DNA of 64,000 nt from Mycoplasmatota bacterium (lineage in GTDB: Bacteria > Bacillota_I > Bacilli_A > MAG-NZ), in the NCBI GenBank assembly GCA_018394315.1, contig CP074575.1, positions 372,001-436,000 on the forward strand, read 5' to 3'. Within the stretch, counting starts at the first letter, position 1, and every line of letters begins with the position of its first letter. The notes under the pieces are model-generated. The model was not told where the DNA came from, made no database searches, and saw only the letters and a program-made list of their open reading frames with translations. The position numbers were made by a program, and so were the translations under genes. Positions 2,669-23,998 of this stretch are shown piece after piece.

Positions 2669-2697
2669 AAAAATGAGCTATCATTTCACATGATAAC

Positions 2698-6505: not shown

Positions 6506-6538
6506 TTAATCACATCCAGTCATTTTAACTTTAGAAAT

Positions 6539-6572
6539 AAAATCCATCCTAGAATTCTAGAAATGGATTTTT
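6539..6572 (-). terminator. Terminator-like hairpin between mreB pair and GGDEF-EAL gene, copy A
   Basis: Stem aaaatccat...atggatttt enclosing ctagaattctag; same hairpin at 11633-11667. Confidence 0.55.
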
Positions 6573-6580
6573 TCAGACAA

Positions 6581-7606
6581 TTAATCTAAAGGTTTTACTA
6601 AGTAACTACCTTTATTTTTCAATAATACTTTAGTACCTTCACAAATTGCAGTCAATGCGTTACTAGTTATTTTAACATCAACTTGTAATCTATTTGACAA
6701 GAAATCAGCGATACCATGAATTAACGCTCCACCACCATTAACAATAATTCCATCATTGATAATATCAGCTGCTAACTCTGGAGGAGTTTGCTGTAATACT
6801 CTTTGAACTGTATTTACAATTTCCTCGAAAGCTTCTATTAAAACATCTCTAATCTCTTTTTGAGTAATTTCGATTTCTTTTGGTAAACCAGTTAATAAAT
6901 CTCTACCTGCGATCTTCATCGTTTCAGATGCGCCAGATAACGCTTCATCTAAAGTACCAATTTCTTTTTTGATTTTTTCAGCTGAAATCGAACCGATAAG
7001 TACTTGATGAGTAAACTGAATATGTTTAATAATCGCTTCATCAAAGAATGTTCCTGCGACACGAATCGATTCAGAATTTACTATATCACCAAGTGATAAC
7101 ACACCGATATCTGTTGATCCTCCACCGATATCAATAACCATAGCTCCCTGAGGTTTGAAAATATCTGCGCCTGCCCCGATTGCTCCAGCTTTGACTTCTT
7201 CTTCAATAAAACATTCACCAATACCTAGGTCTGAAGCTAGTTCAATTAAAGAATCTCTCTCTATTTGAGTTACTTCTGAAGGGCAGCTTAATAGAAGAGT
7301 TGATGCCGAAAGATCATAAGAATCTTTATCTATCTTCTGTAGTACATACTCAATCAAAGTTCCTGCAGATCTAATGTCTGATATTACACCTAGGTGTAAA
7401 GGCTTAGAAATAGTAATTCTATCATGAGTTTTACCAACCATTTTTGCCGCTTCTTTACCAACAGCTATAGTTTCACCAGTTTCATTATCGTACGCAACTA
7501 CAGATGGTTCATTAAATACAACACCTTTCCCCGCTACATACACTAGAGTATTAACTGTACCCAGATCAACACCTATACTTAATCCTTTTTTCTTTTTAGT
7601 TTCCAT
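6581..7606 (-). CDS. mreB: MreB-family actin-like protein (paralog 2, copy A)
   Basis: GVDLGTVNT phosphate-1, NEPSVVA, DIGGGSTD phosphate-2 and GGGALI adenosine motifs. Confidence 0.95.
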   Translation of the reverse strand: METKKKKGLSIGVDLGTVNTLVYVAGKGVVFNEPSVVAYDNETGETIAVGKEAAKMVGKTHDRITISKPLHLGVISDIRSAGTLIEYVLQKIDKDSYDLSASTLLLSCPSEVTQIERDSLIELASDLGIGECFIEEEVKAGAIGAGADIFKPQGAMVIDIGGGSTDIGVLSLGDIVNSESIRVAGTFFDEAIIKHIQFTHQVLIGSISAEKIKKEIGTLDEALSGASETMKIAGRDLLTGLPKEIEITQKEIRDVLIEAFEEIVNTVQRVLQQTPPELAADIINDGIIVNGGGALIHGIADFLSNRLQVDVKITSNALTAICEGTKVLLKNKGSYLVKPLD

Positions 7607-7620
7607 AATTACCCTCCTTC

Positions 7621-8715
7621 TTATTCAGTATCTGCATCTTTTACAAAGTGCCCTCGTGTTTTAAGTAATACTTTGGTACCTAAAACTACCGAAGTTAACG
7701 GATTACTAGAAACTCTAACTTTTAATCCAAGTTTTTCAGTAAAATACTCAGCAGCATGATCTACTAATGAAACACCACCATTTAATAAGATTCCATCATA
7801 ATATATGTCTGAACATAACTCAGGTGGAGTATCTTTAAATGCAGAAATAATTAAGTTTTTAATGTCATTAAAGATAGGTAATAATACTTCAGTTACGTTT
7901 CTTGATGTAATCTCTGTATGTCTTGGTAAACCTGTTAATAAATCTCTACCAGCAACTCGCATTGTAGCTACGTCTTTTTTCTCATTTACAGTTCCTAATT
8001 CAATTTTTATTCTCTCAGCAGTTTTTTGCCCAATCTCAATTTTCAAATGTTGTTTACAATACTTAATAATTTCATGATCAATAAAATTACCAGCCATTCT
8101 TAACGTTTTAGATAATACAACATCACCTAAGTTAAGAATACCAACATCGGTAGATCCACCACCAATATCAACCACCATTGTACCTCGGTCATCATAGATA
8201 TCTACACCAGATCCTACACATCCAGACTTAATTTCTTCCTCAATATAAACTTCTTCTATCCCTAATTGTTGAGGAAGTTGCAATAAAGCTTTTCTTTCGA
8301 TTTGAGTTACCTCTGATGGGCAACACAGTACACTTCTAATCTCAGAGTTGCTTGCATGTAAGTTTACTTTAGAAAACACGAATTTAAGTAAATCTTTAGC
8401 GGCTCTAATATCAGAAATAACACCATCTCTTAAAGGTCTAACTATTTTAATTTTATCATGAGTTTTCCCAGTCATGTTATCTGCCTCAAACCCGGCTGCG
8501 ATTACTTTTCTCGAATCTCTATCGTATGCTACTATAGAAGGTTCATCAAATATGATTCCTTGTCCTTCAACATAGACTAGTAAATTTACCGTTCCGAAGT
8601 CGATACCAACTCCAACTTTTCTGACTTCGATGTTCTCAGGAGTCTCTTCAACTACTTCTTCAATAGTTTCGAAAGATTCAAGAGGTTCTTTTTTAGAATT
8701 TTTATTTTTAATCAC
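7621..8715 (-). CDS. mreB: MreB-family actin-like protein with acidic N-terminal extension (paralog 1, copy A)
   Basis: GIDFGTVN, DEPSIVA, PLRDGVI, DIGGGSTD, GRDLLTGLP, TPPEL motifs. Confidence 0.95.
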   Translation of the reverse strand: MIKNKNSKKEPLESFETIEEVVEETPENIEVRKVGVGIDFGTVNLLVYVEGQGIIFDEPSIVAYDRDSRKVIAAGFEADNMTGKTHDKIKIVRPLRDGVISDIRAAKDLLKFVFSKVNLHASNSEIRSVLCCPSEVTQIERKALLQLPQQLGIEEVYIEEEIKSGCVGSGVDIYDDRGTMVVDIGGGSTDVGILNLGDVVLSKTLRMAGNFIDHEIIKYCKQHLKIEIGQKTAERIKIELGTVNEKKDVATMRVAGRDLLTGLPRHTEITSRNVTEVLLPIFNDIKNLIISAFKDTPPELCSDIYYDGILLNGGVSLVDHAAEYFTEKLGLKVRVSSNPLTSVVLGTKVLLKTRGHFVKDADTE

Positions 8716-9333: not shown

Positions 9334-10314
9334 TTACAAATTATCAAAATTACTATATCTTTCTTTTAATTCCATTAGTCTGTCTTTACATAATAAGATT
9401 ATAATCAAACATTCAATGATATCTATTGTTTCTATATAATCTATATCAAATGAACCTTCTTTCAAAAGATTATCTATAAACTCATTCAAATCATTAACTA
9501 TCTTATCTTCAACACTATAATTATAAACTTTAAGTGAATGAAGTGAAAAATTTCTTAGCGATAGATGGTCATATTTATTACTCTTAATCGATGTAACAAT
9601 TTTTGAATAGGCTATATTTAACGCTGATATCAATCCAGCAATTTGAAAACTTCTACCTTTATTATCAATTAACTTTTTCAAATGCATTTTTGCTGCAAAA
9701 TCCAAGATCTCTTGATCGGCTTGAAGAACAAATTCAAATGCATCTGAACTGTCATCATATGCTAATTTATAAACTACATCAGAAGAGTATTTATTTATAA
9801 TTCCAATAGCAATATCATTTGATAACATTACTTCTAAACTTTCTTCCCCAACAAATACATTAATTTCATTTTCAGTATCAAGAGCTTTTTGACTGTTAAT
9901 CACTAATCTTCCTTGCCTTATGATTGTTTGAGTAATCATAAACAAGACTGATAATAAAAATACGTATATAGTAATGAAGGTGTATAAAAGATGTAAATTT
10001 GTCAATTTGAATATTAATACTAAAAATAACGATATGATAAATGATACAGAAATCTTTCTTATACATTTCTTAAAAGCATGCCAAACTATAACAACTATTA
10101 TTTTAGAGTAAAGATGCCATTTTGGATACTTGCGCTCAATATCCATTAGTTTACTAGAATAAAAGTGTATTAATAAGGTATATAAAAATATTGTATTAAT
10201 TCTTTCATTGTCCTTCATCATGGTATGAGTTTCTCTTAAACTAGTTTTATAGAAGTCATCTACATAAGATGTAAATCGACTATTTATATGCGATAATTCA
10301 GACGCCAAATACAT
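9334..10314 (-). CDS. Unknown membrane protein, copy B (start moved to ATG 10314)
   Basis: Differs from copy A at 2 residues by manual comparison. Confidence 0.75.
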   Translation of the reverse strand: MYLASELSHINSRFTSYVDDFYKTSLRETHTMMKDNERINTIFLYTLLIHFYSSKLMDIERKYPKWHLYSKIIVVIVWHAFKKCIRKISVSFIISLFLVLIFKLTNLHLLYTFITIYVFLLSVLFMITQTIIRQGRLVINSQKALDTENEINVFVGEESLEVMLSNDIAIGIINKYSSDVVYKLAYDDSSDAFEFVLQADQEILDFAAKMHLKKLIDNKGRSFQIAGLISALNIAYSKIVTSIKSNKYDHLSLRNFSLHSLKVYNYSVEDKIVNDLNEFIDNLLKEGSFDIDYIETIDIIECLIIILLCKDRLMELKERYSNFDNL

Positions 10315-11599
10315 TATTACTCCATATTTGTTCTTCAAAACGATTAAACTCTCTAGGTTTTCCATACCAAAAACCTTGAACTAAATTTAAATCATATTTA
10401 ATAAGCGCGTGTAATTCATCTACTTTTTCAATTTTTGTAACAATAACTTGTACTCCTTTAGATACAAGAAATTCTATAAACTTTGAAAATTCTGGTTTCT
10501 TGTAATGGTCAGTTGTTATTTTTATCATATCATAAGGGAATTTTCCATGGATCTCAATTAACTCTTCGAAGTTAAACGTTATATTATCTATACATACCTT
10601 AAACCCTATGTCTTGTATTTTTCTTAGGCTAGAAATACATTCATTATTATTGAAGGTAATCATATCAATATGAATTAAAATATTATTGACGGGAACTTCT
10701 TTATATCTTCGAATCAAGTTATCAAGCCTTTTCACGAATGAATCACTCAATGATTCTTTTGCAACTTTGATTCCTATAATGAAATTTTCATCAACTAAAT
10801 TCTTATTGAGTAATTTTAAATAATTTTTAAATGCATCCTCAGCTATACTAAAGTCTACATTTGAAATTAGATTTCTTTTAATAGCTAATGGTATAAACAC
10901 ATTAGGATTTAAAACTTTATCCTTATTTTTCCATCTTGCAAGTGTTTCAAAACCTACAATCTTGACCTTTTTAGTATCATATATACATAAATAATGAGAG
11001 ATTATCTTATTTGAGTCATCAATTCCATAACTTTTTTCTACGTTATTTGGGTTATCCAAATTTATTAAATTATAATTGGTGTTCCTATTTTTAGCTATAT
11101 GACAACTACTAATAACTATGTCTAGTAACTCTTCTGAATTCGTTGGCAGAGACTTACTAACGGCAGCTCCTATGTGAAACTTAAGCTTGATCTTTCTATT
11201 ATCAATCTTAATATTTTTGTTTAAGTTATTTATTAATCTATCAGCTAACTGATGATGATTTATTTTTGTATTTGCATTTACTAATACGTACTTTTCATCA
11301 GAAAAATAAAATAAACTAAACTTATATTCTTTAGAGTACTTCTTTAATATAGAGATTAATTTACCTCTTATAATGCTTTTTTCATTATCCGTGTACACAT
11401 TTTCTTTTAATTCGCTCATCTCTATATATAATACAAATCCAACATTATTTTTCTTTAAATGCCTATAAAATGAAAACCTACTCAGAATAGAATATCTTCT
11501 GTTATATAAAATAGATTTTTGTAAAGTAATTTTCGTTAAAAAGTAAAAAATAATCGGAGTTATTATTATTAAAATATAATATATATATTCTTTCGGCAT
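10298..11599 (-). CDS. Membrane-anchored degenerate GGDEF-EAL domain protein, copy B
   Basis: Same motifs as copy A (SDEKY, GFETLARW, VQGFWYGKP). Confidence 0.85.
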   Translation of the reverse strand: MPKEYIYYILIIITPIIFYFLTKITLQKSILYNRRYSILSRFSFYRHLKKNNVGFVLYIEMSELKENVYTDNEKSIIRGKLISILKKYSKEYKFSLFYFSDEKYVLVNANTKINHHQLADRLINNLNKNIKIDNRKIKLKFHIGAAVSKSLPTNSEELLDIVISSCHIAKNRNTNYNLINLDNPNNVEKSYGIDDSNKIISHYLCIYDTKKVKIVGFETLARWKNKDKVLNPNVFIPLAIKRNLISNVDFSIAEDAFKNYLKLLNKNLVDENFIIGIKVAKESLSDSFVKRLDNLIRRYKEVPVNNILIHIDMITFNNNECISSLRKIQDIGFKVCIDNITFNFEELIEIHGKFPYDMIKITTDHYKKPEFSKFIEFLVSKGVQVIVTKIEKVDELHALIKYDLNLVQGFWYGKPREFNRFEEQIWSNNVFGV

Positions 11600-11632
11600 T
11601 TAATCACATCCAGTCATTTTAACTTTAGAAAT

Positions 11633-11667
11633 AAAATCCATCCTAGAATTCTAGAAATGGATTTTTT
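11633..11667 (-). terminator. Terminator-like hairpin, copy B
   Basis: Same stem-loop as 6539-6572. Confidence 0.55.
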
Positions 11668-11674
11668 CAAACAA

Positions 11675-12700
11675 TTAATCTAAAGGTTTTACTAAGTAAC
11701 TACCTTTATTTTTCAATAATACTTTAGTACCTTCACAAATTGCAGTCAATGCGTTATTAGTTATTTTAACATCAACTTGTAATCTATTTGACAAGAAATC
11801 AGCGATACCATGAATTAACGCTCCACCACCATTAACAATAATTCCATCATTGATAATATCGGCTGCTAACTCTGGAGGAGTTTGTTGTAATACTCTTTGA
11901 GCTGTATTTACAATTTCCTCGAACGCTTCTATTAAAACATCTCTAATTTCTTTTTGAGTAACTTCGATTTCTTTTGGTAAACCAGTTAATAAATCTCTAC
12001 CTGCGATCTTCATCGTTTCAGAAGCGCCAGATAACGCTTCATCTAAAGTACCAATCTTCTTTTTAATTTTTTCAGCTGAAATCGAACCGATAAGTACTTG
12101 ATGAGTAAACTGAATATGTTTAATAATCGCTTCATCAAAGAATGTTCCTGCGACACGAATCGATTCAGAAGTTACTATATCACCAAGTGATAACACACCG
12201 ATATCTGTTGATCCTCCACCGATATCAATAACCATAGCTCCCTGAGCTCTAAAAATATCTACACCTGCTCCGATTACTCCAGCTTTGACTTCTTCTTCAA
12301 TAAAACATTCACCAATACCTAGGTCTGAAGCTAGTTCAATTAAAGACTCTCTCTCTATTTGAGTTACTTCTGAAGGGCAGCATAATAGAAGAGTTGATGC
12401 TGAAAGATCATAAGAATCTTTATCTATCTTCTGCAGTACATACTCAATCAAAGTTCCTGCAGATCTAATGTCTGATATTACACCTAAGTGTAAAGGCTTA
12501 GAAATAGTAATTCTATCATGAGTTTTCCCAACCATTTTTGCCGCTTCTTTACCAACAGCAATAGTTTCACCAGTTTCATTATCGTACGCAACTACAGATG
12601 GTTCATTAAATACAACACCTTTCCCCGCTACATACACTAGAGTATTAACTGTACCTAAATCAACACCTATATTTAATCCTTTTTTCTTTTTAGCTTCCAT
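11675..12700 (-). CDS. mreB: MreB-family actin-like protein (paralog 2, copy B)
   Basis: Actin-fold motifs as in copy A. Confidence 0.95.
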   Translation of the reverse strand: MEAKKKKGLNIGVDLGTVNTLVYVAGKGVVFNEPSVVAYDNETGETIAVGKEAAKMVGKTHDRITISKPLHLGVISDIRSAGTLIEYVLQKIDKDSYDLSASTLLLCCPSEVTQIERESLIELASDLGIGECFIEEEVKAGVIGAGVDIFRAQGAMVIDIGGGSTDIGVLSLGDIVTSESIRVAGTFFDEAIIKHIQFTHQVLIGSISAEKIKKKIGTLDEALSGASETMKIAGRDLLTGLPKEIEVTQKEIRDVLIEAFEEIVNTAQRVLQQTPPELAADIINDGIIVNGGGALIHGIADFLSNRLQVDVKITNNALTAICEGTKVLLKNKGSYLVKPLD

Positions 12701-12714
12701 AATTACCCTCCTTC

Positions 12715-13839
12715 TTATTCAGTATCTGCATCTTTTACAAAGTGCCCTCGTGTTTTAAGTAATACTTTGGTACCTAAAACTACCGAAGTTAATGGATTAC
12801 TAGAAACTTTAACTTTTAATCCAAGGTTTTCAGTAAAATACTCAGCAGCATAATCTACTAATGAAACACCACCATTTAATAAGATTCCATCATAATATAT
12901 GTCTGAACATAACTCAGGTGGAGTATCTTTTAATGTAGCAATCATTAAGTTTTTAATGTCATTAAAGATAGGTAATAATACTTCAGTTACGTTTCTTGAT
13001 GTGATTTCTGTATGTCTTGGTAAACCTGTTAATAAATCTCTACCAGCAACTCGCATTGTAGCAACGTCTTTTTTCTCATTTAAAGTTCCTAATTCAATTT
13101 TGATTTTCTCAGCAGTCTTTTGCCCAATCTCAATTTTCAAATGCTGTTTGCAATACTTAATAATTTCATGATCAATAAAATTACCAGCCATTCTTAACGT
13201 TTTAGATAATACAACATCACCTAAGTTAAGAATACCAACATCGGTAGATCCACCACCAATATCAACCACCATTGTACCTCGGTCATTATAGATATCTACA
13301 CCAGATCCTACACAACCAGACTTGATTTCTTCCTCGATATAAACTTCTTCTATCCCTAATTGTTGAGGAAGTTGTAATAAAGCTTTTCTTTCAATTTGAG
13401 TTACCTCTGATGGGCAACACAGTACACCTCTAATTTCAGAGTTGCTTGCATGTAAGTTTACTTTAGAAAACACGAATTTAAGTAAGTCTTTAGCAGCTCT
13501 GATGTCAGAAATAACACCATCTCTTAAAGGTCTAACTATTTTAATTTTATCATGAGTTTTCCCAGTCATGTTATCTGCATCAAACCCGGCTGCAATTACT
13601 TTTCTCGAATCCCTATCGTATGCGACTACAGAAGGTTCATCAAATATGATTCCTTGTCCTTCAACATAGACTAGTAAATTTACCGTTCCGAAGTCGATAC
13701 CAACTCCAACTCTTCTCTCTTCGATGTCTTCATCTGTCTCTTCTAAGACTTCCTCAGTAGTCTCTTCTAAGACTTCTTCAGTAGTCTCCACAGTCTCTAC
13801 AGATTGTACTGATTTTTTTTTAGAATTGATCTTTTGCAT
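12715..13839 (-). CDS. mreB: MreB-family actin-like protein with longer acidic N-terminal extension (paralog 1, copy B; start moved to ATG 13839)
   Basis: Actin-fold motifs; AAGGAG is correctly spaced for ATG 13839 rather than 13848. Confidence 0.95.
   Translation of the reverse strand: MQKINSKKKSVQSVETVETTEEVLEETTEEVLEETDEDIEERRVGVGIDFGTVNLLVYVEGQGIIFDEPSVVAYDRDSRKVIAAGFDADNMTGKTHDKIKIVRPLRDGVISDIRAAKDLLKFVFSKVNLHASNSEIRGVLCCPSEVTQIERKALLQLPQQLGIEEVYIEEEIKSGCVGSGVDIYNDRGTMVVDIGGGSTDVGILNLGDVVLSKTLRMAGNFIDHEIIKYCKQHLKIEIGQKTAEKIKIELGTLNEKKDVATMRVAGRDLLTGLPRHTEITSRNVTEVLLPIFNDIKNLMIATLKDTPPELCSDIYYDGILLNGGVSLVDYAAEYFTENLGLKVKVSSNPLTSVVLGTKVLLKTRGHFVKDADTE
13736..13788. repeat. 24-bp tandem repeat (about 2.2 units) encoding TEEVLEET
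   Basis: gtctcttctaagacttcctcagta / gtctcttctaagacttcttcagta / gtctc. Confidence 0.9.
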
Positions 13840-13907
13840 TATATACATTCTCCTTTCGCCTTGCGATTAATTTATGGCAAATTCTTTGTGGCAAACACTT
13901 AATGTGC

Positions 13908-13936
13908 ATTATATCAAAAACTAACATATTTCGCTA
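13908..13936 (-). promoter_or_regulatory. Promoter of module copy B
   Basis: Minus strand TAGCGA-N17-TATAAT with extended TG. Confidence 0.6.
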
Positions 13937-14583
13937 CTAATAGACACTTAACGACAAAGCATATATAAGTAATTGAATCGACAGAACTTCTACAAAATTT
14001 AGTTATTAGTGAAATCAAGTCGTGAAAAATAGTATTTAATTTATTTTTTTAAAATTAATTAAGTAACGATATTGGTAAAATATGGTAATTTTTCATATTG
14101 TATAACTCACGAAAATACAAAGAATAATAGTAATTTATCTAAGTTATTGAGTCACTCTCTGATATAAGGAGGTTATCGAAATTAGTAGCGTAAAGGATGA
14201 TATGTTAACGCCAAATCAAAATATTTTACGGGCTTCATTTTACCTAAAAAGGTAGGGGACTATAAATTATACTCTTCTCCATAGGAAATTCCAATTCCAG
14301 GCGTACTGGTTCTCCTTGATGGGAAGGATACCAAGAAAGTTTACACAACTGATTATTATTCAACTAATTATAAGTTTACATGTAACGATGTTGAATATTC
14401 TCTCAAAAAAGACTGTTTAAACTTCCTTCAAGAAATATTAGATCAAGTTCATTTACCTAATTTGTTCTTTTGCTTTAGTTCATTCAGGTATCCACTCACA
14501 GATATATATACTCGATATGATTTGCTTTAAATTATTATATTATAAAAAAAAGACAAATATTTGCAGTTTATCATTGCTTATAT

Positions 14584-14612
14584 AATCGAGGAGTAGGAGA
14601 TATTTGAACACT
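14584..14612 (-). repeat. Degenerate copy of tRNA-Ser 3' end (outermost att-like scar)
   Basis: aatcgaggagtaggagatatttgaacact matches 22037-22065 at 25/29; flank attgcttatataa resembles the tRNA downstream flank. Confidence 0.8.
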
Positions 14613-14687
14613 TCCAAATACAACATAACTCATATTGAATTCCAAGTCCTTATATCAATTTACGCGGACTTCAAACATCACGCTAAG

Positions 14688-14720
14688 AAAAAGTAGAAAA
14701 AATCATTTTTTCTACTTTTT
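14688..14720. terminator. Intrinsic terminator
   Basis: aaaaagtagaaaaaa-tca-ttttttctacttttt just past the stop of the 14755 gene. Confidence 0.7.
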
Positions 14721-14754
14721 GTAGTGTCGTCTCTCGTATTTTCGTCCTTATAAG

Positions 14755-15798
14755 CTATAAGATCATCGATTGTTTTGTTGCTATTTTATTTAATTTTTTT
14801 AGATTTATAATAGGGAAAAGTACTGGTAATGTTACAATTACTAAAATCATTAATAATCCTATATCACTAAGACGATAATAACCTTCGATCAATCCTATAA
14901 TGAACACAAAAAGAACAAATATTGGTAGTACACACAACAAACCGATTTGGAATATGATTATTCTCTTCATATACTTTGAGAATATTATAACCCTAGTAAA
15001 CAAGTATGATAGTACCATAAAAGCAAGCAGTGCAGCTAATAGGTACTCTTCTATGTTTACATATGATCTAACAACTAAACCAGCAAAAGATATTATAAAT
15101 ATAATAGAATATATTATCATACAAATGTCAAAGTATAATTTATGTTTACGTAATAATTTTGCATGATAATCTTTCATCTCTTTATTTGCAACTAATTCTT
15201 TTGTTTCCCATCTAGACATAAGCAATAACACAACAGCACATACAGCAATTATAAATTGTGAAAACATAACAAATTCATTTATTGCTAAATTCGTTACTGA
15301 CAGTGCAAGAAGTAGTGTACTTGATATAAACATTGATAATATATAATAAACGTCTTTATCAAAGATTTTTGTAGAGACAAGTGAAAAATAGATGATTTGA
15401 AATATAATAGTAATAAACATTAACCAAGTTATGTATACAGTGTATCCGGATAACCCTCTATAAATCAATTCAAATCCTCTTAAAATAACGCCGTCATTTA
15501 TGAAAGGTAGAAAAAAAACTAATAAAGATATTGATAGTAAAATAATTTTTAATGAGAAAATCCTGTTATTATAATTCTCTTTTCTAGACTTCCTTTCACC
15601 ATCTAGTAGTTCATTAATTGTAATATTATACAATAGACTTAATTTCCGTAAAATCTCAACATCAGGTATCGACTCTCCTCTTTCCCATTTTGAAACAGCT
15701 TGCCCAGATACATTACATAAGTTTGCGATTTCACTTTGAGTAAGACTTCTTTCTTTTCTAAGACTTAATAAAAAATCACCTATAATTTTATTATTCAT
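14755..15798 (-). CDS. XRE-family HTH protein fused to a multi-pass membrane domain (start moved to 15798)
   Basis: LRKERSLTQSEIA...VSGQAVSKWERGESIPD, then several TM helices; GGAGG 6 nt before ATG 15798. Confidence 0.88.
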   Translation of the reverse strand: MNNKIIGDFLLSLRKERSLTQSEIANLCNVSGQAVSKWERGESIPDVEILRKLSLLYNITINELLDGERKSRKENYNNRIFSLKIILLSISLLVFFLPFINDGVILRGFELIYRGLSGYTVYITWLMFITIIFQIIYFSLVSTKIFDKDVYYILSMFISSTLLLALSVTNLAINEFVMFSQFIIAVCAVVLLLMSRWETKELVANKEMKDYHAKLLRKHKLYFDICMIIYSIIFIISFAGLVVRSYVNIEEYLLAALLAFMVLSYLFTRVIIFSKYMKRIIIFQIGLLCVLPIFVLFVFIIGLIEGYYRLSDIGLLMILVIVTLPVLFPIINLKKLNKIATKQSMIL

Positions 15799-15921
15799 AA
15801 TCATCCTCCCTATTAATATTATATATACTATAAATAAAAGATGCAAAGTACTGTAAGTTGTATCTACTAAACCAACAGTTGATATTTTGAAACCCTCATT
15901 GTTTTACAACTAATACGTAGG

Positions 15922-16080
15922 ACAGCACGAGGCCAAAGCGGGTCACCTGTTCATAATATTTCTAACCAGGCAATTGGAATTCATTCTGGAGCTACTTCAA
16001 TTGACCAAGATACAAATAATAGAGCTACCAGAATATCGATAGCTCTAATGAATTAACTGGGAGATAATTATATTAACTAA
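15922..16080 (+). pseudogene. C-terminal remnant of a trypsin-like (V8/glutamyl endopeptidase-type) serine protease
   Basis: Translates to TARGQSGSPVHNISNQAIGIHSG...NNRATRI with the GxSGSP catalytic Ser motif; no start or 5' part. Confidence 0.7.
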
Positions 16081-16367
16081 GTGGTATTTATAGCTATGTT
16101 TCTTCAGCTAACAATATTCGCTTATATAAAAGGAGTGTACTCACCCTTAAAGTTGTGGAGACATTATATACGAACAATGATTATGCCTTCCAATTTCAAA
16201 AGTCGATGTCAGATTGTTACCTTGTTAAATATAGATTTAGAAAATACACTCTAATGTTAGCTATGAAAGAGGAATAATCGATGGAAATGCCACCTCACTA
16301 TGAACATTACTACATAGAATGAATAGAAAGAGGGATTCCCCGAATTACAATAATAACTATAAAGAAT

Positions 16368-16395
16368 AGACCCCAAATAATATTTTGGAGTCTAA
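16368..16395. terminator. Hairpin terminator downstream of the 16458 gene
   Basis: tagaccccaaa / tttggagtcta inverted repeat. Confidence 0.5.
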
Positions 16396-16457
16396 TCCTT
16401 TCTTTAATTTATAAGTTTTTAATTATTATTGAGTAATAAATCATATTTTATCTATAC

Positions 16458-17027
16458 TTAATCGCCAATGATTAAAATAATTTCATTTATCTTTTCTATT
16501 ATATCATCAGCTTGTTGTAAAGCATTTTTATTCACATCATAGTTATGTAACAAATCCATTGCCTCAGCAGTTGGACCAGGGCAATAAATTCCAAGTTCAT
16601 TTCTTGGGTCATCCTTAGGATCATATTTTTCAAATTTATTAGAGAAAATTATCATAATACTTCCTTCTTTAGGTAGATCGTTACTATCGTAACTTATTAA
16701 AACTCCTTCTTCATTAACACCCCCTATTTTTTGTATTACAATCTTGTCTTCCATCTCGCCTTTTAATTTCATCAGAACATCAACAGAATACCTAGTTTTA
16801 GGCATACTTGAACCGTAACCTTCAAATTGAAGAGTTTCTAGTTCTTCAACGATATGTCCTATAAAAATATAATCATACTTTTCTATTTTTTCACTTATAT
16901 CAGTTAAAGGTTCTGGATAATCAGCGTATACTACTACTTCTGGTTGTACTTCATTCTTTGTCTGCTTACATCCAATCATTATAAATGCCAATGCACATAA
17001 AGTGGTAACACATAAGATTTTTTTCAC
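16458..17027 (-). CDS. Hypothetical lipoprotein (start moved to GTG 17027)
   Basis: GGAGGAG ribosome site, MKKILC...MIGC lipobox. Confidence 0.75.
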   Translation of the reverse strand: MKKILCVTTLCALAFIMIGCKQTKNEVQPEVVVYADYPEPLTDISEKIEKYDYIFIGHIVEELETLQFEGYGSSMPKTRYSVDVLMKLKGEMEDKIVIQKIGGVNEEGVLISYDSNDLPKEGSIMIIFSNKFEKYDPKDDPRNELGIYCPGPTAEAMDLLHNYDVNKNALQQADDIIEKINEIILIIGD

Positions 17028-17128
17028 AATATTCTCCTCCTTAACCCCAATTATAAATAGATACACCCCTTTTATTATTATCACATCAAACTTTTTATTT
17101 GATATCTACTAAACGGGGCGCATAAAAC

Positions 17129-17177
17129 CTGTTCGCTATTGCTTATTTAATGGCGGAGTAGGAGAGATTTGAACTCT
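17129..17177 (-). repeat. Copy of tRNA-Ser 3' end plus 22 bp of downstream flank (att-like scar)
   Basis: 17151-17177 is identical to 22039-22065; 17129-17150 matches 22017-22038 at 20/22. Confidence 0.93.
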
Positions 17178-17318
17178 TACGCATTATAATATACTTGTTC
17201 TTTTATTAATTTTTCAACTCATTATAACAAATCACAGTTAAGTTAAACTTAACTCTAAGAAAAAAATAAAACTTTTTAAAATTTTATCTTTTCTTTATTA
17301 TGAATTGAGTTTCTCATT

Positions 17319-17786
17319 TTACTTATCTTTTTCTATAAGCATTTTAACTATTCTATTATACTCACCTTCCTCATACTCTGCTTCAAAGTATGTTCTCCCC
17401 TTGAGTCTTGAATTCATGTATAGAAGATCATCACCCCAAAGTGGACTAAACATAAGAGTATGCCCATCTTCAAGTTTCATAGTAATTTTATATACACAAC
17501 CACGTCCAAGTTCACCAGACCTCTGCTCTGTCAAATTTAATGGAAACTTCAAATTCCCAATATACTCAAACAACTCATCAGCATCTACGACTTCTATTTT
17601 ATGATATAGAACGTCTATAGTTGAAGGGCAGTTAGTTACATCATCAAAAACTGTTATCTCAATAACATCATCAATAGGTATTCTCCCTGGTGTGTTTCCA
17701 TATAGTATAACAATTGTACCTACAATTAAAAACATAACTAACAGAATCACACATAAAGAAATTAGGATCACCTTTATGTCTTTCAT
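17319..17786 (-). CDS. Hypothetical membrane-anchored exported protein (start moved to ATG 17786)
   Basis: GGAGG before MKDIKVILISL; single N-terminal hydrophobic helix. Confidence 0.7.
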   Translation of the reverse strand: MKDIKVILISLCVILLVMFLIVGTIVILYGNTPGRIPIDDVIEITVFDDVTNCPSTIDVLYHKIEVVDADELFEYIGNLKFPLNLTEQRSGELGRGCVYKITMKLEDGHTLMFSPLWGDDLLYMNSRLKGRTYFEAEYEEGEYNRIVKMLIEKDK

Positions 17787-17957
17787 GAATCTTCCTCCAC
17801 TCTCATATAGTATTAATAATTGTTTTTTCTCAAGTTCCCAATCATCAAAACTATTCACTTTATAATCTCTTACAAAAATAATAGACTCTATAAATAGTAT
17901 ACTACATATTGTTTCTGTATATAACAAATTAACCCTCCTAAAGAAGTTATATTAACT

Positions 17958-17985
17958 AAAAAAGGTAAACAACTGTTTACCTTTT
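17958..17985 (-). terminator. Terminator following a displaced tRNA 3' end
   Basis: aaaaggtaaaca-ac-tgtttacctttt. Confidence 0.75.
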
Positions 17986-17998
17986 GAATTATTATAAA

Positions 17999-18026
17999 TG
18001 GCGGAGTAGGAGAGATTTGAACTCTC
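17999..18026 (-). repeat. Exact 28-bp copy of tRNA-Ser 3' end (T-arm to CCA; att-like scar)
   Basis: tggcggagtaggagagatttgaactctc is identical to 22039-22066. Confidence 0.95.
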
Positions 18027-18346
18027 TTGTCTGAAAATCATACTATTTTAATATATATTTTTCAAAGAACAATCATATACTACTCGGTGATTAATGAAGT
18101 TATTAATGGAATATACACTTACCTCAAATACGGGAATATAATATTGAGCCTTCATCTAATCACCTACTACCATTATAAGATTTACACGGAAAGAAACGTT
18201 CTGTTCAAAAAAAAGTAGAAATAATTATAATTTCTTTCTACTTTTCATCTATATTCCTTTCAATTAATGTATATTTGATTTGACCAGTGAAGTTCATAAC
18301 CTAACGGTGTCGGAGACCGAAACCACACATATATCTCTTTAATTGT

Positions 18347-18802
18347 TTATATAGGTAACTCTTTGTTAACTTTTTTTATTGGTTCTATAGTAGCTATTTC
18401 GCCATCTCTATTTGTTAGATTTTCGAGTTCTTGACCAAAATGATTTATAGAGGCAATATCAGTAATAAGAACATTTTTACTGTGCATATAATACTCTTCA
18501 TATTTTTGCTCATTACTACTCATTTCTATATCACACTGTATATGTCCATTCCAATTCTTTAATTTCATTCTAATTCTCAAAAATCCTATTCCAAAACGGC
18601 CTCCTTTACCTAATTCACCAAATACTATTTCTTTGACGTCTGTTTCACTTCTTGGAAACCACTCAGATAATTCTTTTGACAGCTCACTGACTTTAGCTTC
18701 CGAAGTGTACAAATATACTCTACTTTTAACATCTACAGAATGTGTAGTGACTTGTAATTCTATCATATAGACATCAGACCATACTCTCTTAAACTCAATC
18801 AT
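18347..18802 (-). CDS. Hypothetical protein
   Basis: 151-aa ORF with AAGGAG ribosome site. Confidence 0.75.
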   Translation of the reverse strand: MIEFKRVWSDVYMIELQVTTHSVDVKSRVYLYTSEAKVSELSKELSEWFPRSETDVKEIVFGELGKGGRFGIGFLRIRMKLKNWNGHIQCDIEMSSNEQKYEEYYMHSKNVLITDIASINHFGQELENLTNRDGEIATIEPIKKVNKELPI

Positions 18803-18892
18803 AAGTTGTTCTCCTTATTTATACTACTTCTTAAATCTCCATATATATTTTTTATGAAGGGTGATGGAGCTTGAAATGAGGTATTTAACTAT

Positions 18893-19339
18893 TTAATATC
18901 TTGCTATTATTTGCATTAACTGACAGTTAATTATCTTTTCAATTTTTATAATATCCGAAATTTCAATTTTTCTAAGTGGATTAAAAATCTCAATCTCGCA
19001 CTTCGAAAATCCACAATTAAAATTATACTTAAGATTCTCAAGTTCTGTTACCGAGCTACAACAAGGTGTTTTTATTGTTCTATCAACAAAACCAGAATTA
19101 TAACTTTCGGACATTCTCTCTTGCCACCAACCATCAAGATTAGCACCGCATACATTACATCTAATAGAATCTAAGTTTTCTCCACAATCAATGAACGTAA
19201 TATCTTCAAAAGTTACAATACGTATTGTCTCATACTTATATTCAATAGAATCTAAATAATTTTCTATCAATGATTCTAACAAATCGGGAAACATCACACC
19301 TACCTTTTTGGGTATTAACCTTACAAAGTTATCTGACAT
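18893..19339 (-). CDS. Conserved hypothetical Cys-rich protein
   Basis: FIDCGEN...CNVCG...TPCC...CGF pattern, possible metal ligands; ribosome site present. Confidence 0.78.
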   Translation of the reverse strand: MSDNFVRLIPKKVGVMFPDLLESLIENYLDSIEYKYETIRIVTFEDITFIDCGENLDSIRCNVCGANLDGWWQERMSESYNSGFVDRTIKTPCCSSVTELENLKYNFNCGFSKCEIEIFNPLRKIEISDIIKIEKIINCQLMQIIARY

Positions 19340-19496
19340 TATTTTTTCTCTCCCTATACTAATTTGCTATAATTGTTTAACTGTGTTGACTAACAATACA
19401 ACATATACATGTTAACTAAAACTATAGAGCATTTGTATGAAAAATCCACGATTTCTAAGTTCATTACTCACGATAAAAAATATTTCTATGATAAAT

Positions 19497-20207
19497 CTAA
19501 ATCGCTTCTTTTTTTTCTAGATACTTCTTTAATCTTAAATACTTCTTTGAATTTACTTGAGTCTCAAAACCAAGGTATCTCAATATTTCATTTCCCACAT
19601 ATTCTTCCCACAGAAAGTTACTTCCTGAATGCTTCTTTCTATAATATTCGTTCCAATATGACATAACTCTAGATTGTGTAGTATTAAAAAAAACCTTGTT
19701 ATCACTTATGAAGTCTAAATATAAACGTTTATCAATTACCCCTATATTTTCTTTAATAATCTCAACTATTTCTACTACATATTCTCCTAACAGTCTAATA
19801 ATAAACGGAGCAACCCATGAATGATTGCAATCACCTTTAAATAGGTTTCTAATGGAATCTTCTCTAACGTATCCACTACTATGTCTAGTTAAAATACAGT
19901 AATAGATAGCTTGTTGTATTGGTGTCAGTTTTGTACTATTATTTCTATCAAAGACTTCATTATGTGGATAAGGTGAATTGCTTCTCTTACCTTCAGCTCT
20001 TATTGCTTCAAATTGTTGTAACCACGCCTCGCGCTTTACTCGGTTGTACACTCTATAAGGTATTGTGATTTTCTCATTATTTATATACACAGAAAAGGTA
20101 ATACTAGAACCCATTTCTTCAAATGCAAAAGAATTAATAACAACCAAAACATCTTTTTCTATACTTTTTGGAAACGAATTAAGTAATATAGATTCTAAAT
20201 CATTCAT
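19497..20207 (-). CDS. Conserved hypothetical protein
   Basis: IPYRVY, TRHSSGYVRE and LLGEYVVEI motifs; ribosome site AAGGGG. Confidence 0.78.
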   Translation of the reverse strand: MNDLESILLNSFPKSIEKDVLVVINSFAFEEMGSSITFSVYINNEKITIPYRVYNRVKREAWLQQFEAIRAEGKRSNSPYPHNEVFDRNNSTKLTPIQQAIYYCILTRHSSGYVREDSIRNLFKGDCNHSWVAPFIIRLLGEYVVEIVEIIKENIGVIDKRLYLDFISDNKVFFNTTQSRVMSYWNEYYRKKHSGSNFLWEEYVGNEILRYLGFETQVNSKKYLRLKKYLEKKEAI

Positions 20208-20455
20208 AAAGATATCCCCTTGATAAAAATATTTATGTTTCTTAAGATAAAAGGATTTTCTAATTATCAGTGTAGAGACCGAAATAACGTATTATATTAG
20301 TAATATAGCACAACAGCTACAAAAAATTACAATTCCAATTACTAATATTATTCCAGTTGTGATATATCCTGAAGCATCTTCCTTTGAAATTAATTTACCC
20401 ATTGCTCATAGTCACGTTGTTCACCCAGATATATAAACAGTTCTATCTACTGTTA

Positions 20456-21667
20456 CTACGTAAAGGAGTTAGTATCAATAAAGTTATATTTAATTTCTAC
20501 CACAACATTACCATTAACATCAATTATTCCATACTTGTTGTCTTTTCTTACTCTTATTAGATTATAGTCTAATATAAATACCATATCGTCAAACATATAA
20601 TCTACTATTTTTCTACCATTTAGATCTATAAGCCCCCATTTATCATTGGACTTTACTATCACGAAATTACTATTGTAATAAAACTTAAGATCATCAAACT
20701 CTATATCTACTTTAATCTCACCAACATTATTTATTAGTCCGCACCTATCGTCAACACAGACCTCAGCCAGGTCTTCCTCTCCAAAAGGTTCTGCTTTATC
20801 ATACACAAAATCTATCACAACATTACCATCTTTGTTAATGTATCCCCATTTATTATTCATTTTGACTGCTGCAAGGTTGTTAGAGAATCCAAATGCAAAA
20901 TCATACTTTATATCAATTAATAAGTTACCTTTCATATCTACAAAACCAAACTTATTTTGTAATATTATTTTAGATAACCCTTCACGAAAATCTCCTATTC
21001 CATCATATATAGTATCAACTGTTAATTCGCCAGTTTCATCAATGTATCCCCACTTATCTTCTAATTTCACCCTAGCGCCCTTTGTAAAAAATAATGAGTC
21101 ACGTACTCTATCATACTTAGGCTCAACAACAATAGTGCCAGAATCATTTATATACCCCCATTTGTCACCTAATAGAAAAGCTTTATGATCCGCAAAATCA
21201 TATTTAATTTCAGTAACTAATTCACCAGCTTTATTAATGTATCCCCACTTGTTATCTATATTTACTGGTGTTATATTACTATTAAGAAACCACTTGGTTC
21301 TATCATAGATAAAGTCTATAACTACATCTCCTGATGTGTTAATATACCCCCACTTTCCATTTAGACATGTGGGGAATAGATCTTCTGCGAAATGATTATC
21401 AATGTAATCATATTCAATGTCTACTATAAGTTTTCCGGCGTTGTCAGCTAGACCCCATTTGTCTTCTATCTCAACTGCAAGTACAGTATTAAATTTAGAA
21501 GTAATAATATTTTGATATATAATAGGTAATATAACATCTCCTTTTGAATTAATTGCTCCCTTTAAATCACCATCACGAACAACTATTAAATGATTATTAT
21601 TTATATTACTACAACCAGTGATTGTAAATGTTAGTATCACTAATAACACTAGAACAATTTTCCTCAT
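20456..21667 (-). CDS. WG (KWG)-repeat lipoprotein
   Basis: Lipobox ITGC; many KWGYIN/D-xxG repeats. Confidence 0.92.
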   Translation of the reverse strand: MRKIVLVLLVILTFTITGCSNINNNHLIVVRDGDLKGAINSKGDVILPIIYQNIITSKFNTVLAVEIEDKWGLADNAGKLIVDIEYDYIDNHFAEDLFPTCLNGKWGYINTSGDVVIDFIYDRTKWFLNSNITPVNIDNKWGYINKAGELVTEIKYDFADHKAFLLGDKWGYINDSGTIVVEPKYDRVRDSLFFTKGARVKLEDKWGYIDETGELTVDTIYDGIGDFREGLSKIILQNKFGFVDMKGNLLIDIKYDFAFGFSNNLAAVKMNNKWGYINKDGNVVIDFVYDKAEPFGEEDLAEVCVDDRCGLINNVGEIKVDIEFDDLKFYYNSNFVIVKSNDKWGLIDLNGRKIVDYMFDDMVFILDYNLIRVRKDNKYGIIDVNGNVVVEIKYNFIDTNSFT

Positions 21668-21995
21668 ATTAGCATCTCCTTAATAGACTATCTTAGAATA
21701 CATTATTTAGATTATTGTAACATACTTTTTAACTTTTCAAAAACTAACAAGATGAAAAAAAATGCAATATTTATCCTATGTAGTTAGCTATAGAAAAAGG
21801 GATAGCTTGCAAAAGTGAAATACTTCTAATCGAAGATTTCATATCTAGGTATATCAAAATAACCGATACATATAAAGGAGTTATTGACTTAATAAAAATT
21901 TCTATTTAGAGATTCCCTTTCACAACGCACACGTGAACTGACCACAGCTTCTAATAATTATATACTCTAAAACTGTCCATTACATAATTTACTAT

Positions 21996-22025
21996 AAAAA
22001 AAGCAAACAGATTTTTCTGTTTGCT
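21996..22025 (-). terminator. tRNA-Ser terminator
   Basis: agcaaacaga / tctgtttgct stem followed by a T run on the minus strand. Confidence 0.8.
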
Positions 22026-22038
22026 ATTGTTTATTTAA

Positions 22039-22129
22039 TGGCGGAGTAGGAGAGATTTGAACTCTCGCGCCGCGTAAACGACCTATACCCTTAGCAGGGG
22101 CACCTCTTCAGCCACTTGAGTACTACTCC
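22039..22129 (-). tRNA. tRNA-Ser (anticodon GCT)
   Basis: Acceptor stem GGAGTAG/CTACTCC, anticodon arm TGCCC-CTGCTAA-GGGTA, long variable arm, T-arm GAGAG-TTCAAAT-CTCTC, encoded CCA. Confidence 0.97.
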
Positions 22130-22147
22130 ATTTTATCGTGCTCATAT

Positions 22148-22176
22148 ATTTTATAATATTTGTTGGTCTATGTCAA
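22148..22176 (-). promoter_or_regulatory. Sigma-A promoter of tRNA-Ser
   Basis: TTGACA-N17-TAAAAT on the minus strand. Confidence 0.75.
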
Positions 22177-22306
22177 CAAAATTTATCAACATTTGCATTT
22201 CATAAAGTCAATTATAAAATCTTTATATAAAAATTTCTTTTAACTAATGTAATAAGTGTATTCTTTTACCAATTCTAGAGAAAATAATGACTGAAAGGTT
22301 GGTAAT

Positions 22307-23998
22307 ATGATAACTAATTATAAAATTGAAAAGAATAAAGGTAGTGAAGTTCTCCATTTATATTATGAAGGATTTACAACGGAGTTTTCTAGTGATTTCT
22401 TTAAAAACTCTAATGAATCTTTTAAGTCACTCAAAAAACAAATAATTGATTACATTAAAAGTAATAAAATTGATTTTAAAGGAACTATGGCTAAAGTAAT
22501 GATTGGAGGAGCTTTAACTCTTACAGTACTTTTAGGTAATAATATTGCTGTTGAAGCTAGTAATGATTCCTCGCAAGATATCACATATTTCATACAAGAA
22601 GGTGATAACCTATGGAAAATTGCTAGAAAATATAATACAAGTGTAAATGATCTTAAAGCAAGTAATAATCTTCAGTCAGACAATATTTATCCAGGTGAAG
22701 AATTAACTATTCGCTTGCCATTAAACACAAGGAAATATATAGTTCAAGAAGGTGATAATCTTTGGATAATTGCTAGAGAACATAATATAAGTACAGATGA
22801 ACTCAAGACAAGTAATAATTTAACTTCAGATGTTATTCACCCAGGTGACACTTTATATATTTATCCTTCCTCTACTTCTACTCCTACTTCTGTTTATCAA
22901 ATAGAATATGGAGATAGCTTATGGACTGTAGCAAAGAAATTCAATATGTCAGTAAGTGAATTGAAGCAATTAAATAATTTAACTTCAGATGCTATTTACG
23001 TTGGAAATTCACTTATTGTCAATCAAATAAATCCAGTAGAGGAAACACAAAATGAATATATTGTAAAGTCTGGTGATAGTTTATGGAGTATCTCTAATAA
23101 GTTCAATATTTCAGTAGCTGACTTGATTAGAGTCAATAATCTAGATTCTGATGTTATCTATATTAATCAACGACTAACAATTAATTCTACTGTCAATATA
23201 GAAAGTGATATCACTCTTCAACTCCGTTTAGAGAATGGGCAAGTTATAAACATTTCATTAGAAGAATATGTAGTGGGTGTCGTAAGTAGTGAAATGTATC
23301 CACACTTTCATGAAGAAGCACTAAAAGCTCAAGCATTAGCGGCAAGAACATACGCATTGAAGGCTTATGAAGAAGGAGTTATTCTTTCAACAACGGACTA
23401 CCATCAAGTGTATCAAAACGAAGATGCATTAAGAAGATTGTGGGGAGCTAAGTACGACGAATACTACAGTAAAATGGAAAAAGCAGTTTTATCCACTAAA
23501 GGTGAAGTAATAAAATATAACGGTGAGTTGATCGATGCTTTATACTTTTCAACAAGTAACGGAAAAACTGAGAATCCTTTCTATATCTGGGGTGGAGAAC
23601 TAGATTACTTACAAAGTGTTAATAGTCCTTGGGATGTAGAATCAACGGAATATCTCAATACAAAGACAATGAGCTTAGATGAATTCTCAAAATCTCTTGG
23701 AGTACGTTCAAGTAATGTTTATATTGAAGTATTATCTTGGACATCAGGTGACAGAATAGAAAACATTAAGATTGATGGTATAACTTTTGATGGTAACACA
23801 GTAAAATCAAAATTAGGATTACGCTCTACTGATTTTTCGATTAACATTGAAGGGGACATGGTTCATATAGAACAAAGAGGCTGGGGTCATGGTGTTGGAA
23901 TGAGTCAGTATGGAGCTCACTATATGAGTCAAGAAGGATATACCTACGATCAGATTATTAAACACTACTATCAAAATGTTAATATAGAAGCTAGTTAA
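22307..23998 (+). CDS. 4x LysM + SpoIID/LytB-domain peptidoglycan-processing protein
   Basis: Four Y-x-[IV]-xx-GD-x-LW LysM repeats; EEYVVGVVSSEM, EALKAQALAARTY and GWGHGVGMSQYGA SpoIID motifs. Confidence 0.92.
   Translation: MITNYKIEKNKGSEVLHLYYEGFTTEFSSDFFKNSNESFKSLKKQIIDYIKSNKIDFKGTMAKVMIGGALTLTVLLGNNIAVEASNDSSQDITYFIQEGDNLWKIARKYNTSVNDLKASNNLQSDNIYPGEELTIRLPLNTRKYIVQEGDNLWIIAREHNISTDELKTSNNLTSDVIHPGDTLYIYPSSTSTPTSVYQIEYGDSLWTVAKKFNMSVSELKQLNNLTSDAIYVGNSLIVNQINPVEETQNEYIVKSGDSLWSISNKFNISVADLIRVNNLDSDVIYINQRLTINSTVNIESDITLQLRLENGQVINISLEEYVVGVVSSEMYPHFHEEALKAQALAARTYALKAYEEGVILSTTDYHQVYQNEDALRRLWGAKYDEYYSKMEKAVLSTKGEVIKYNGELIDALYFSTSNGKTENPFYIWGGELDYLQSVNSPWDVESTEYLNTKTMSLDEFSKSLGVRSSNVYIEVLSWTSGDRIENIKIDGITFDGNTVKSKLGLRSTDFSINIEGDMVHIEQRGWGHGVGMSQYGAHYMSQEGYTYDQIIKHYYQNVNIEAS

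Follow-up and report, generated by a model that had tools for sequence, protein, structure and literature searches.

The window analysed here is a stretch of 64,000 nucleotides (nt) from a Mycoplasmatota bacterium (GenBank assembly GCA_018394315.1, contig CP074575.1). It corresponds to G000:372001-436000, where G000 is the genome of the window, and coordinates below are window positions unless a genome is named. The stretch contains a gene for tRNA-Ser(GCT) followed by three copies of its 3' end, which bound small gene-bearing units, and the largest unit is subdivided by copies of the anticodon arm of tRNA-Trp. We lean towards reading this locus as an additive island of two tiers at tRNA-Ser(GCT), whose sites derive from two different tRNAs and would be served by tyrosine integrases encoded elsewhere. 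This reading builds on features that can be observed directly, namely the anatomy of the sites, the two site types, the absence of an integrase, the variable content among relatives and the intact integrases elsewhere.

Outer sites derived from tRNA-Ser

The outer tier is made up of units bounded by copies of the T-arm and 3' end of tRNA-Ser. The tRNA, its displaced copies and the hairpins are as follows.

22039-22129, minus strand: tRNA-Ser(GCT), found by ARAGORN and Rfam; anchor of the array and presumed integration target
22002-22025, minus strand: terminator-like hairpin behind tRNA-Ser
17997-18026, minus strand: tRNA-Ser 3'-end copy 1; core 17999-18026 identical at 28/28 positions, 30 with flank
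17960-17985, minus strand: terminator-like hairpin behind copy 1
17143-17177, minus strand: tRNA-Ser 3'-end copy 2; core 17151-17177 identical at 27/27 positions, 35 with flank
14584-14612, minus strand: tRNA-Ser 3'-end copy 3; 25/29 identical, diverged, T-loop intact

Successive spacings from the tRNA through copies 1, 2 and 3 are 4040, 848 and 2565 nt, giving units of 4.0, 0.8 and 2.6 kb; the coordinates and identities of the three bounding copies, as given in an initial annotation of this DNA, were reproduced. A site matrix trained on 10 sites, all from relatives, gives the copies 55.9, 50.1 and 32.6 bits, while the 99th percentile of the best scores in 200 shuffled regions is 4.9. The same kind of scan over 13850-22038 found no fourth Ser copy and no Phe-type site above chance, and in an Rfam scan of 13000-23000 the sole match was the tRNA. 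The copies are direct repeats of the tRNA-Ser end, co-oriented and downstream of the tRNA, which is the arrangement of an additive island. The GC content of the units is 28-29%, against 30-32% in the flanks. Units 1, 2 and 3 contain 4, 1 and 2 intact genes, and all 7 lie on the minus strand, the strand of the tRNA and the sites, in agreement with the initial annotation (1-4 intact genes per segment, all on the tRNA strand); an open reading frame (ORF) of 36 amino acids (aa) is additional to these. An assembly artefact is unlikely, given that the array lies on one contig, that the units are non-repetitive, and that two relatives, G001 and G004, show the same pattern.

Inner sites derived from tRNA-Trp

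Each unit follows the plan tRNA tail, terminator, cargo, arm. The 4.0-kb segment had been taken for a single unit, and sites derived from tRNA-Trp, overlooked at that time, subdivide it. This inner tier consists of tRNA-Trp anticodon-arm copies between the genes, two of them clear and two weak. From the tRNA, unit 1 runs in the order tRNA, WG gene, Trp site, three genes, Trp site, arm, Ser site.

20456-21667, minus strand: 403-aa WG-repeat protein (PF14903), encoded by the head gene of unit 1
20292-20402, minus strand: hydrophobic ORF of 36 aa, a putative gene, ending at the proximal Trp site
20260-20294, minus strand: proximal Trp site, a decayed tRNA-Trp anticodon arm whose core has a short gap; 12.1 bits, nhmmer E 0.0011
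19497-20207, minus strand: 236-aa protein, member of a widespread family without a name; homologues reach 38% identity at most and were not found in five relatives
19374-19407, minus strand: possible decayed Trp site without significance; -4.7 bits, with 1.6 such matches expected in each shuffled region
18893-19339, minus strand: 148-aa protein rich in Cys; a single homologue turned up (32%), and none in five relatives
18852-18885, minus strand: candidate decayed Trp site, 7.5 bits (0.015 expected per shuffled region), missed by nhmmer
18347-18802, minus strand: 151-aa protein for which a WapI/DUF6228-like fold is no more than a lead; no homologue found in five relatives
18298-18332, minus strand: distal Trp site, well conserved (16/19 core bases), upstream of the copy 1 arm
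18044-18214, minus strand: right-end arm of unit 1, with TATAAT and a boxA-like motif at 18059-18069

The distal site scores 40.6 bits, where shuffles have a 99th percentile of 7.7 (nhmmer E 3.2e-7), and five other window stretches used as nhmmer controls for the proximal site reach at most 4.0 bits. The three best-scoring Trp matches are intergenic and lie on the tRNA strand. The arm of unit 1 belongs to a family that also precedes displaced ends of tRNA-His and tRNA-Pro; among four further arms of the family, one likewise has a Trp site about 300 nt upstream. Co-occurrence of a Trp and a Ser site within a spacer was not counted as evidence, because most spacers in G004 hold a Trp site.

Cargo and arms of the array

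The features of units 2 and 3, and of the sequence beyond copy 3, are as follows.

17319-17927, minus strand: single gene of unit 2, membrane-anchored, unnamed
17178-17266, minus strand: right-end arm of unit 2, with TGnTATAAT and TGAAAA
16458-17084, minus strand: lipoprotein-like gene of unit 3, 208 aa; weak homologue in the tRNA-Arg array
14755-15846, minus strand: XRE-type helix-turn-helix (HTH) membrane protein of unit 3; 64% identical homologue in G001
14191-14530, plus strand: pseudogene, 5' part missing, in-frame stop

Two unnamed cargo families have homologues at 28-38% identity. The lipoprotein-like and membrane-anchored labels of two further cargo proteins come from their sequences. 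Distant homologues of the unit 2 gene (28-30%) are found between tRNA-Phe-type sites in G004 and beside a Phe-site array in G000. That genome has 14 co-oriented tRNA-Phe anticodon-arm sites in about 8 kb at G000:C1:576000-584000, far from tRNA-Phe, and in G004 an intact 287-aa integrase adjoins tRNA-Phe. Searches for phage structural or defence cargo with PHROGs, PADLOC and NCBIfam gave only generic HTH matches, besides two sub-threshold choline-binding matches of the WG protein. The arm of unit 2 is 76% like the arm that ends the HTH unit of G001, and partly like the arms at tRNA-Arg and tRNA-Ser(TGA) sites. In unit 3, the 611-nt spacer 15847-16457 has no counterpart in the genome and includes a pair of terminator-like hairpins. 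Its likeness to the G001 HTH unit breaks off around 15882, so that a Ser site could have dropped out within this spacer.

The initial annotation had the stack end at 14573. Its three units are as described, but the island continues: 14191-14456, between copy 3 and mreB, has 70% DNA identity to a 244-aa lipoprotein-like gene of the tRNA-Arg array, and the pseudogene at 14191-14530 makes a fourth, decayed unit. Copy 3 is thus probably not the native chromosome junction.

The motif TTCTTTGAAAA occurs 21 times in G000, and four of the occurrences are found a short way upstream of displaced ends of a tRNA or tmRNA, one of these ends being copy 1. In the arms, motifs like it lie downstream of TATAAT (window 18059-18069; G000 266589, 639722 and 1071426), and near-identical motifs are present in the rRNA leader and spacer. 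We take this arm and rRNA-leader motif TTCTTTGAAAA to be boxA. There are also NusB-family and Rho_N matches. A promoter scan was at chance level (58 against 56.9), and terminator-like hairpins follow two of the Ser sites.

Site anatomy and probable crossover

The displaced Ser copies do not vary evenly along their length. All 10 of the copies compared, which come from G000, G001 and G004, have the same 7-base T-loop (70/70 positions). In the same copies the 5' stem strand is identical at 37/50 positions and the 3' side at 140/150, a count that omits one position at which the relatives' own tRNAs differ. The invariance of the loop is significant against the 5' stem strand (Fisher p 4e-6) and against the 3' part (p 0.033), values that are overstated since copies within one genome are related. 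The motif TGAAAA lies 25-62 nt upstream of 9 of the 10 copies, as compared with 3.0% of random windows. An invariant loop beside a variable 5' stem strand fits crossover by a tyrosine recombinase within the T-loop, as the initial annotation had supposed, with the left part of each copy coming from the incoming element. Tyrosine recombinases require identity of the overlap between partner sites, and any two Ser copies, or any two Trp sites, could therefore exchange. Both the T-loop of the Ser copies and the anticodon arm of the Trp sites represent known subsite types, and from these sequences we infer the crossover itself. In the cited part of the work on the Islander database, T-loop and anticodon loop are two of three named crossover subsites (PMC4383910).

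Integrases outside the array

The initial annotation described the segments as free of integrase genes, and blastx of the spacers had been suggested as a search for remnants. In G000 there are 10 matches to PF00589, none of them inside the window; tblastn with eight recombinases gave no match in the array at E<10, and blastx of eight array spacers reached a best E of 0.47, the spacer 18803-18892 being covered by the tblastn instead. The description therefore holds for remnants as well.

The same result bears on a rival explanation to which we give a rather low probability. Here, three or four islands with integrases of their own integrated serially and shrank by deletion, as in the accretion of cis-mobilizable elements (CIMEs), so that the sites are scars and the Trp sites mere passengers. 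Such a path is described, in the parts cited, for integrative and mobilizable elements (PMC5704250) and for tycheposon islands (10.1101/2020.12.28.424599). Integrase stubs do follow displaced copies elsewhere in G000, behind two copies in the Ser(TGA) array and three in the Arg array, which shows that island decay is real in this lineage, and the pseudogene beyond copy 3 and the divergence of copy 3 itself also suit it. Yet a stub is found at 0 of the 4 window junctions, where a short hairpin and cargo come next instead. Even where copies have diverged most, the T-loop is preserved, and one-gene units of 0.85 kb and, in G001, 1.37 kb retain complete ends; both points count against passive remnants.

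A genome search for a tyrosine recombinase, proposed at the outset, found intact members of a matching clade elsewhere in G000. The intact enzymes have 301-328 aa and point at tRNA-Trp, tmRNA, tRNA-Ser(TGA) and tRNA-Arg(TCT). In Pfam, those adjacent to a tRNA or tmRNA show SAM-like and catalytic domains only. The Ser(TGA), Arg(TCT) and tmRNA integrases are 42-44% identical to an integrase that abuts tRNA-Ser(GCT) in another relative, G005. In a tree of 13 recombinases this G005 enzyme falls in an unresolved group with the G000 Arg, Ser(TGA) and tmRNA enzymes, and the Trp/Phe group stands apart. A related-locus search with the G005 integrase returned only itself and one weak fragment, and a large serine recombinase (PF07508) was not found in G000, which is 93.6% complete.

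The integrases head small elements, with a Viral_Rep gene at tRNA-Trp and with a methylase at Ser(TGA), Arg(TCT) and tmRNA. The element at tRNA-Trp (G000:C1:733-7950, 7.2 kb) carries an HTH gene and small genes in addition to a Viral_Rep protein and the 301-aa integrase, and it is likely the source of the Trp-site integrase. The tmRNA element (G000:C1:1043096-1071550) has an integrase and a methylase-like gene, then large membrane-protein genes with no Pfam match among the five scanned and no PHROGs match among the three scanned; it is possibly an unclassified virus. The Ser(TGA) and Arg elements have their first genes in common with the tmRNA element, the remainder being absent.

Displaced 3' copies are present in G000 also behind tRNA-His, Arg(TCT), Ser(TGA), Gln, Trp, Glu and Pro and behind tmRNA. 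Orphan copies of the tmRNA and tRNA-His ends, with arms, lie far from their genes at G000:C1:1801991, 1803943, 1815772 and 1819738. The T-loop heptamer of the displaced Pro copy is identical to that of Ser(GCT). The Arg site has the first 7 bases to the right of the loop in common with Ser(GCT). These bases of the Arg site, together with the partial likeness of the copy 2 arm to Arg arms, make the Arg integrase one candidate for action in trans at Ser(GCT).

The same tRNA in related genomes

A tRNA-Ser(GCT) gene is present in 8 of 8 genomes of the order. In G001, of the same genus and 55% complete, the HTH gene forms a one-gene unit of 1.37 kb directly at the tRNA, with 76.5% DNA and 64% protein identity to the unit of G000; the next gene is absent from the G000 array. 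The HTH unit is first in G001 and last in G000, and both of its sides differ. In G004, which belongs to another genus, six Ser copies are spread across 26 kb; the first unit contains an integrase of this clade that is broken, which counts in favour of the remnants. Beside this integrase lies a three-gene cargo (G004:C1:118907-122253) that by the appearance of its sequence may be an ABC-three-component (Lamassu-like) defence set. In G005 an intact 316-aa integrase abuts the tRNA and the contig ends soon after. There is no Ser copy in 5.6 and 5.3 kb downstream of the tRNA in G006 and G007, and in G003 and G002 the sequence is cut off 1.0 and 0.2 kb past it. The content of this locus is not identical in the relatives, a comparison that the initial annotation had called for; it differs among G000, G001, G004 and G005, at the level of genus and family.

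The copies were also said to form a chronological stack with the most distant the most decayed. In the window this is so, with 0, 1 and 5 mismatches in the 28-mer from nearest to farthest. In G004 it is not: the six copies have 7, 1, 2, 3, 1 and 3 mismatches, the nearest being the most diverged. Among five G000 arrays, the farthest copy is strictly the most diverged in three, tied in one and not so in one. As a general rule strict chronology is therefore rejected, also because what lies to either side of the HTH unit is not the same in G001 as in G000. Two identical changes beside the T-loop are seen in the most diverged Ser copies of the window (14584-14613) and of G004 (122342-122369), and they may mark a site variant rather than random decay.

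The G004 array has 6 Ser, 19 Trp-type and 6 Phe-type sites, interleaved in one orientation and mostly one gene apart. A 21-base Trp pattern has 39 matches in G004, in co-oriented clusters, and none in a reversed control; 4 of the 8 genomes have any match. One G004 unit, at 135040-139435, is parallel to unit 1 of the window. It starts with a Ser site, a Phe site, a WG gene and a Trp site, continues with a gene and a Trp site three times over, and ends with a transposase-like gene (by sequence appearance), an arm and a Ser site. The WG proteins of the two units are 36-37% identical, and the G004 protein is the only homologue in five relatives searched. The three small genes of unit 1 were not found in those five relatives, and the G004 unit carries unrelated inserts. 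The proximal Trp site of the window has its best match in the site behind the G004 WG gene (rank 1 of 38; 56 against 51) and the distal Trp flank in the distal site of the same unit (rank 1 of 37; 49 against 44), matches that were tested post hoc, after being noticed, and whose margins are small.

Three copies of an end module in G004, consisting of Trp site, terminator, promoter, arm and Ser site, are 84-87% identical over about 225 nt, and a fourth has about 190-200 nt of linker in common. One module is thus repeated around different cargo, which speaks against passive remnants. A three-gene, integrase-free block of 2.9 kb is 96.5% identical between the Ser(GCT) array of G004 (about 127850-130740) and the Ser(TGA) array of G000 (669123-672010), that is, between different arrays of two genera, and this too counts against remnants. 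A Trp-type site bounds the block on the right in both genomes, and on the left only in G004.

Similar end modules could also recombine without an integrase. Unequal exchange or duplication of the RecA type would then have multiplied and shuffled the units, an explanation that we consider improbable. The G004 modules, 83-92% identical over about 190-230 nt, would offer homology for it, and a 5.1-kb tandem duplication adjoins the array of the window. The three arms of the window are unlike one another, with common homology of only about 30 nt, and the cargo genes are not duplicates of one another. Moreover, the repeats begin at the T-stem or anticodon stem, which are known crossover subsites according to the cited part of PMC4383910.

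The Ser-arm pattern and the Trp-site pattern had 0 matches each in metagenome scans. Viral contigs gave five matches, all of them whole tRNA genes, one of which adjoins an unrelated 375-aa integrase (about 21% identical). Across the class, the Ser-arm pattern occurs in 3 of 401 genomes, all in this family; the pattern contains the family's own tRNA sequence, so this count does not show that such arrays are absent elsewhere.

A possible route of cassette exchange

If tyrosine integrases serve the array, an Xer-sized enzyme of about 315 aa from the Ser/Arg/tmRNA clade, carried by small integrative elements, would cross over in the 7-base T-loop and thereby add, remove or reorder Ser-bounded units. 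The 301-aa integrase beside tRNA-Trp would insert and excise one-gene circles at the Trp sites inside a unit, crossing over in the anticodon loop at sites distant from tRNA-Trp. The integrase-free units likely began as stripped derivatives of elements that carried an integrase, and would now be moved in trans or along with a visiting element. The units may partly be decayed islands. The two origins offered in the initial annotation, an integrase acting in trans and remnants of serial islands, are in fact not exclusive: the stubs next to displaced copies in other G000 arrays testify to decay.

A more ambitious version, which we hold only tentatively, is a live, integron-like system of gene capture in two tiers, made wholly from tRNA sites. 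Ser-bounded carriers with a built-in Trp (and Phe) docking site would load single genes through one integrase; a second integrase would carry them from one tRNA locus or genus to another, and small integrative elements would supply the two enzymes in trans; promoter and boxA-like signals in the arms would drive the next unit.

Besides the relatedness of the Ser copies and the post hoc ranking of the Trp sites, several points weigh against integrase service in two tiers. Of the four inner Trp sites, two are weak or lack significance, so that unit 1 may be largely frozen, and the site-matrix scan gave neither a Trp nor a Phe site in units 2 and 3. In G000 the Ser(GCT) site has no integrase tied to it, and the tree does not resolve the clade. 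No cargo of the array recurs at high identity elsewhere, the best being 64% for the HTH gene and 36-37% for the WG gene. No circle, excision or strain-level variation was seen, the comparisons being at genus and family level with one genome per species.

Comparison with known systems

Stacked tRNA islands are common, and the earlier finding of the stack is by itself modest. The stack alone is of a known kind, a tRNA-anchored additive island as in additive islands and CIME accretion, and not an integron. What sets this one apart is the nesting of Trp sites, together with the parallel unit in a second genus. In the cited parts of the respective papers, tRNA hotspots where partial tRNA repeats mark the cassettes are reported from Alteromonas (PMC4898812), Candidatus Actinomarinales (PMC7771536) and the flexible genomic island fGI-2 of Methylopumilus (PMC10872708). 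The present array differs from what is described there in that Trp sites (in G004 also Phe sites) subdivide units away from their own tRNA, and in that arms are common to different tRNA targets.

In the accretion of integrative conjugative elements (ICEs), integrative mobilizable elements (IMEs) and CIMEs, as far as the cited part of PMC5704250 describes it, attachment ends are likewise kept while integrase and transfer genes are absent, and incoming elements insert where the target gene ends. Units of the present kind go down to one gene, and derivation by decay is not visible in this array. No relaxase or conjugation matches were found among the cargo or the few element proteins scanned, and the donors seem to be small Rep- or methylase-carrying elements, unlike in ICE/IME accretion. 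The tycheposons of Prochlorococcus (10.1101/2020.12.28.424599, in part) share the serial integration at tRNAs, partial tRNAs between elements, older elements pushed inward and fragmented integrases; those elements carry their own integrase, whereas these units have none, and have nested sites as well. Islander islands (PMC4383910, in part) have the tRNA with a co-oriented 3' fragment and the same T-loop and anticodon-loop subsites. Islander, however, needs an integrase for each island and a length of at least 2 kb and rejects internal tRNA fragments, and by these filters the present units and Trp sites would be removed.

Resemblance to integrons, or to attC clusters that have no integron-integrase (CALINs), lies in co-oriented one-gene cassettes between repeated recombination sites, with an enzyme possibly in trans (PMC4889954, in part), and both T-arm and anticodon arm are hairpins of small size. 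That the array is a true integron or CALIN, with attC-like hairpins processed single-stranded by IntI, is nevertheless largely refuted and very improbable. There is no IntI, so the likening to an integron in the initial annotation does not extend to membership: on TIGR02249, whose cut-off is 265, the five integrases scanned that adjoin a tRNA or tmRNA gene get 44-77 bits, and XerC and XerA models fit them better. The sites are sequence copies of tRNA parts, and several site specificities are interleaved. An IntegronFinder survey also found no complete integron in Firmicutes or Tenericutes, according to the cited part of PMC4889954.

The pdif/dif modules of Acinetobacter are gene modules between short recombinase sites with the enzyme in trans, in so far as the partial account consulted describes them; they use XerCD and dif-like sites, whereas the sites here are direct repeats of tRNA parts. 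Their sites alternate in orientation. In the literature on this group and on integrase-less or integron-like tRNA arrays, no nested tRNA-site array was found, a search that covered subscription journals thinly and is no proof of absence.

If the two-tier reading is true, ordinary tRNA integrases have been repurposed for cassette shuffling in a group where IntegronFinder found no complete integrons, in a system that island finders miss by design. It would also give additive islands a directly testable route to acquire single genes. Small Xer-sized integrases with short tRNA-derived sites could serve as insertion tools.

Neighbouring features

Next to the array lies the tandem duplication 4240-8715 / 9334-13848, with a period of 5.1 kb and 96% identity over the mreB part. 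The duplicated four-gene unit encodes a membrane protein, an EAL protein and two mreB; G004 also has the mreB pair twice. To the left of the duplicated unit, at 2070-4112, are two transposase-like genes (IS200-like and ISL3-like by appearance). A tRNA-Glu gene lies just before the window, and the G004 array likewise spans from tRNA-Ser to tRNA-Glu.

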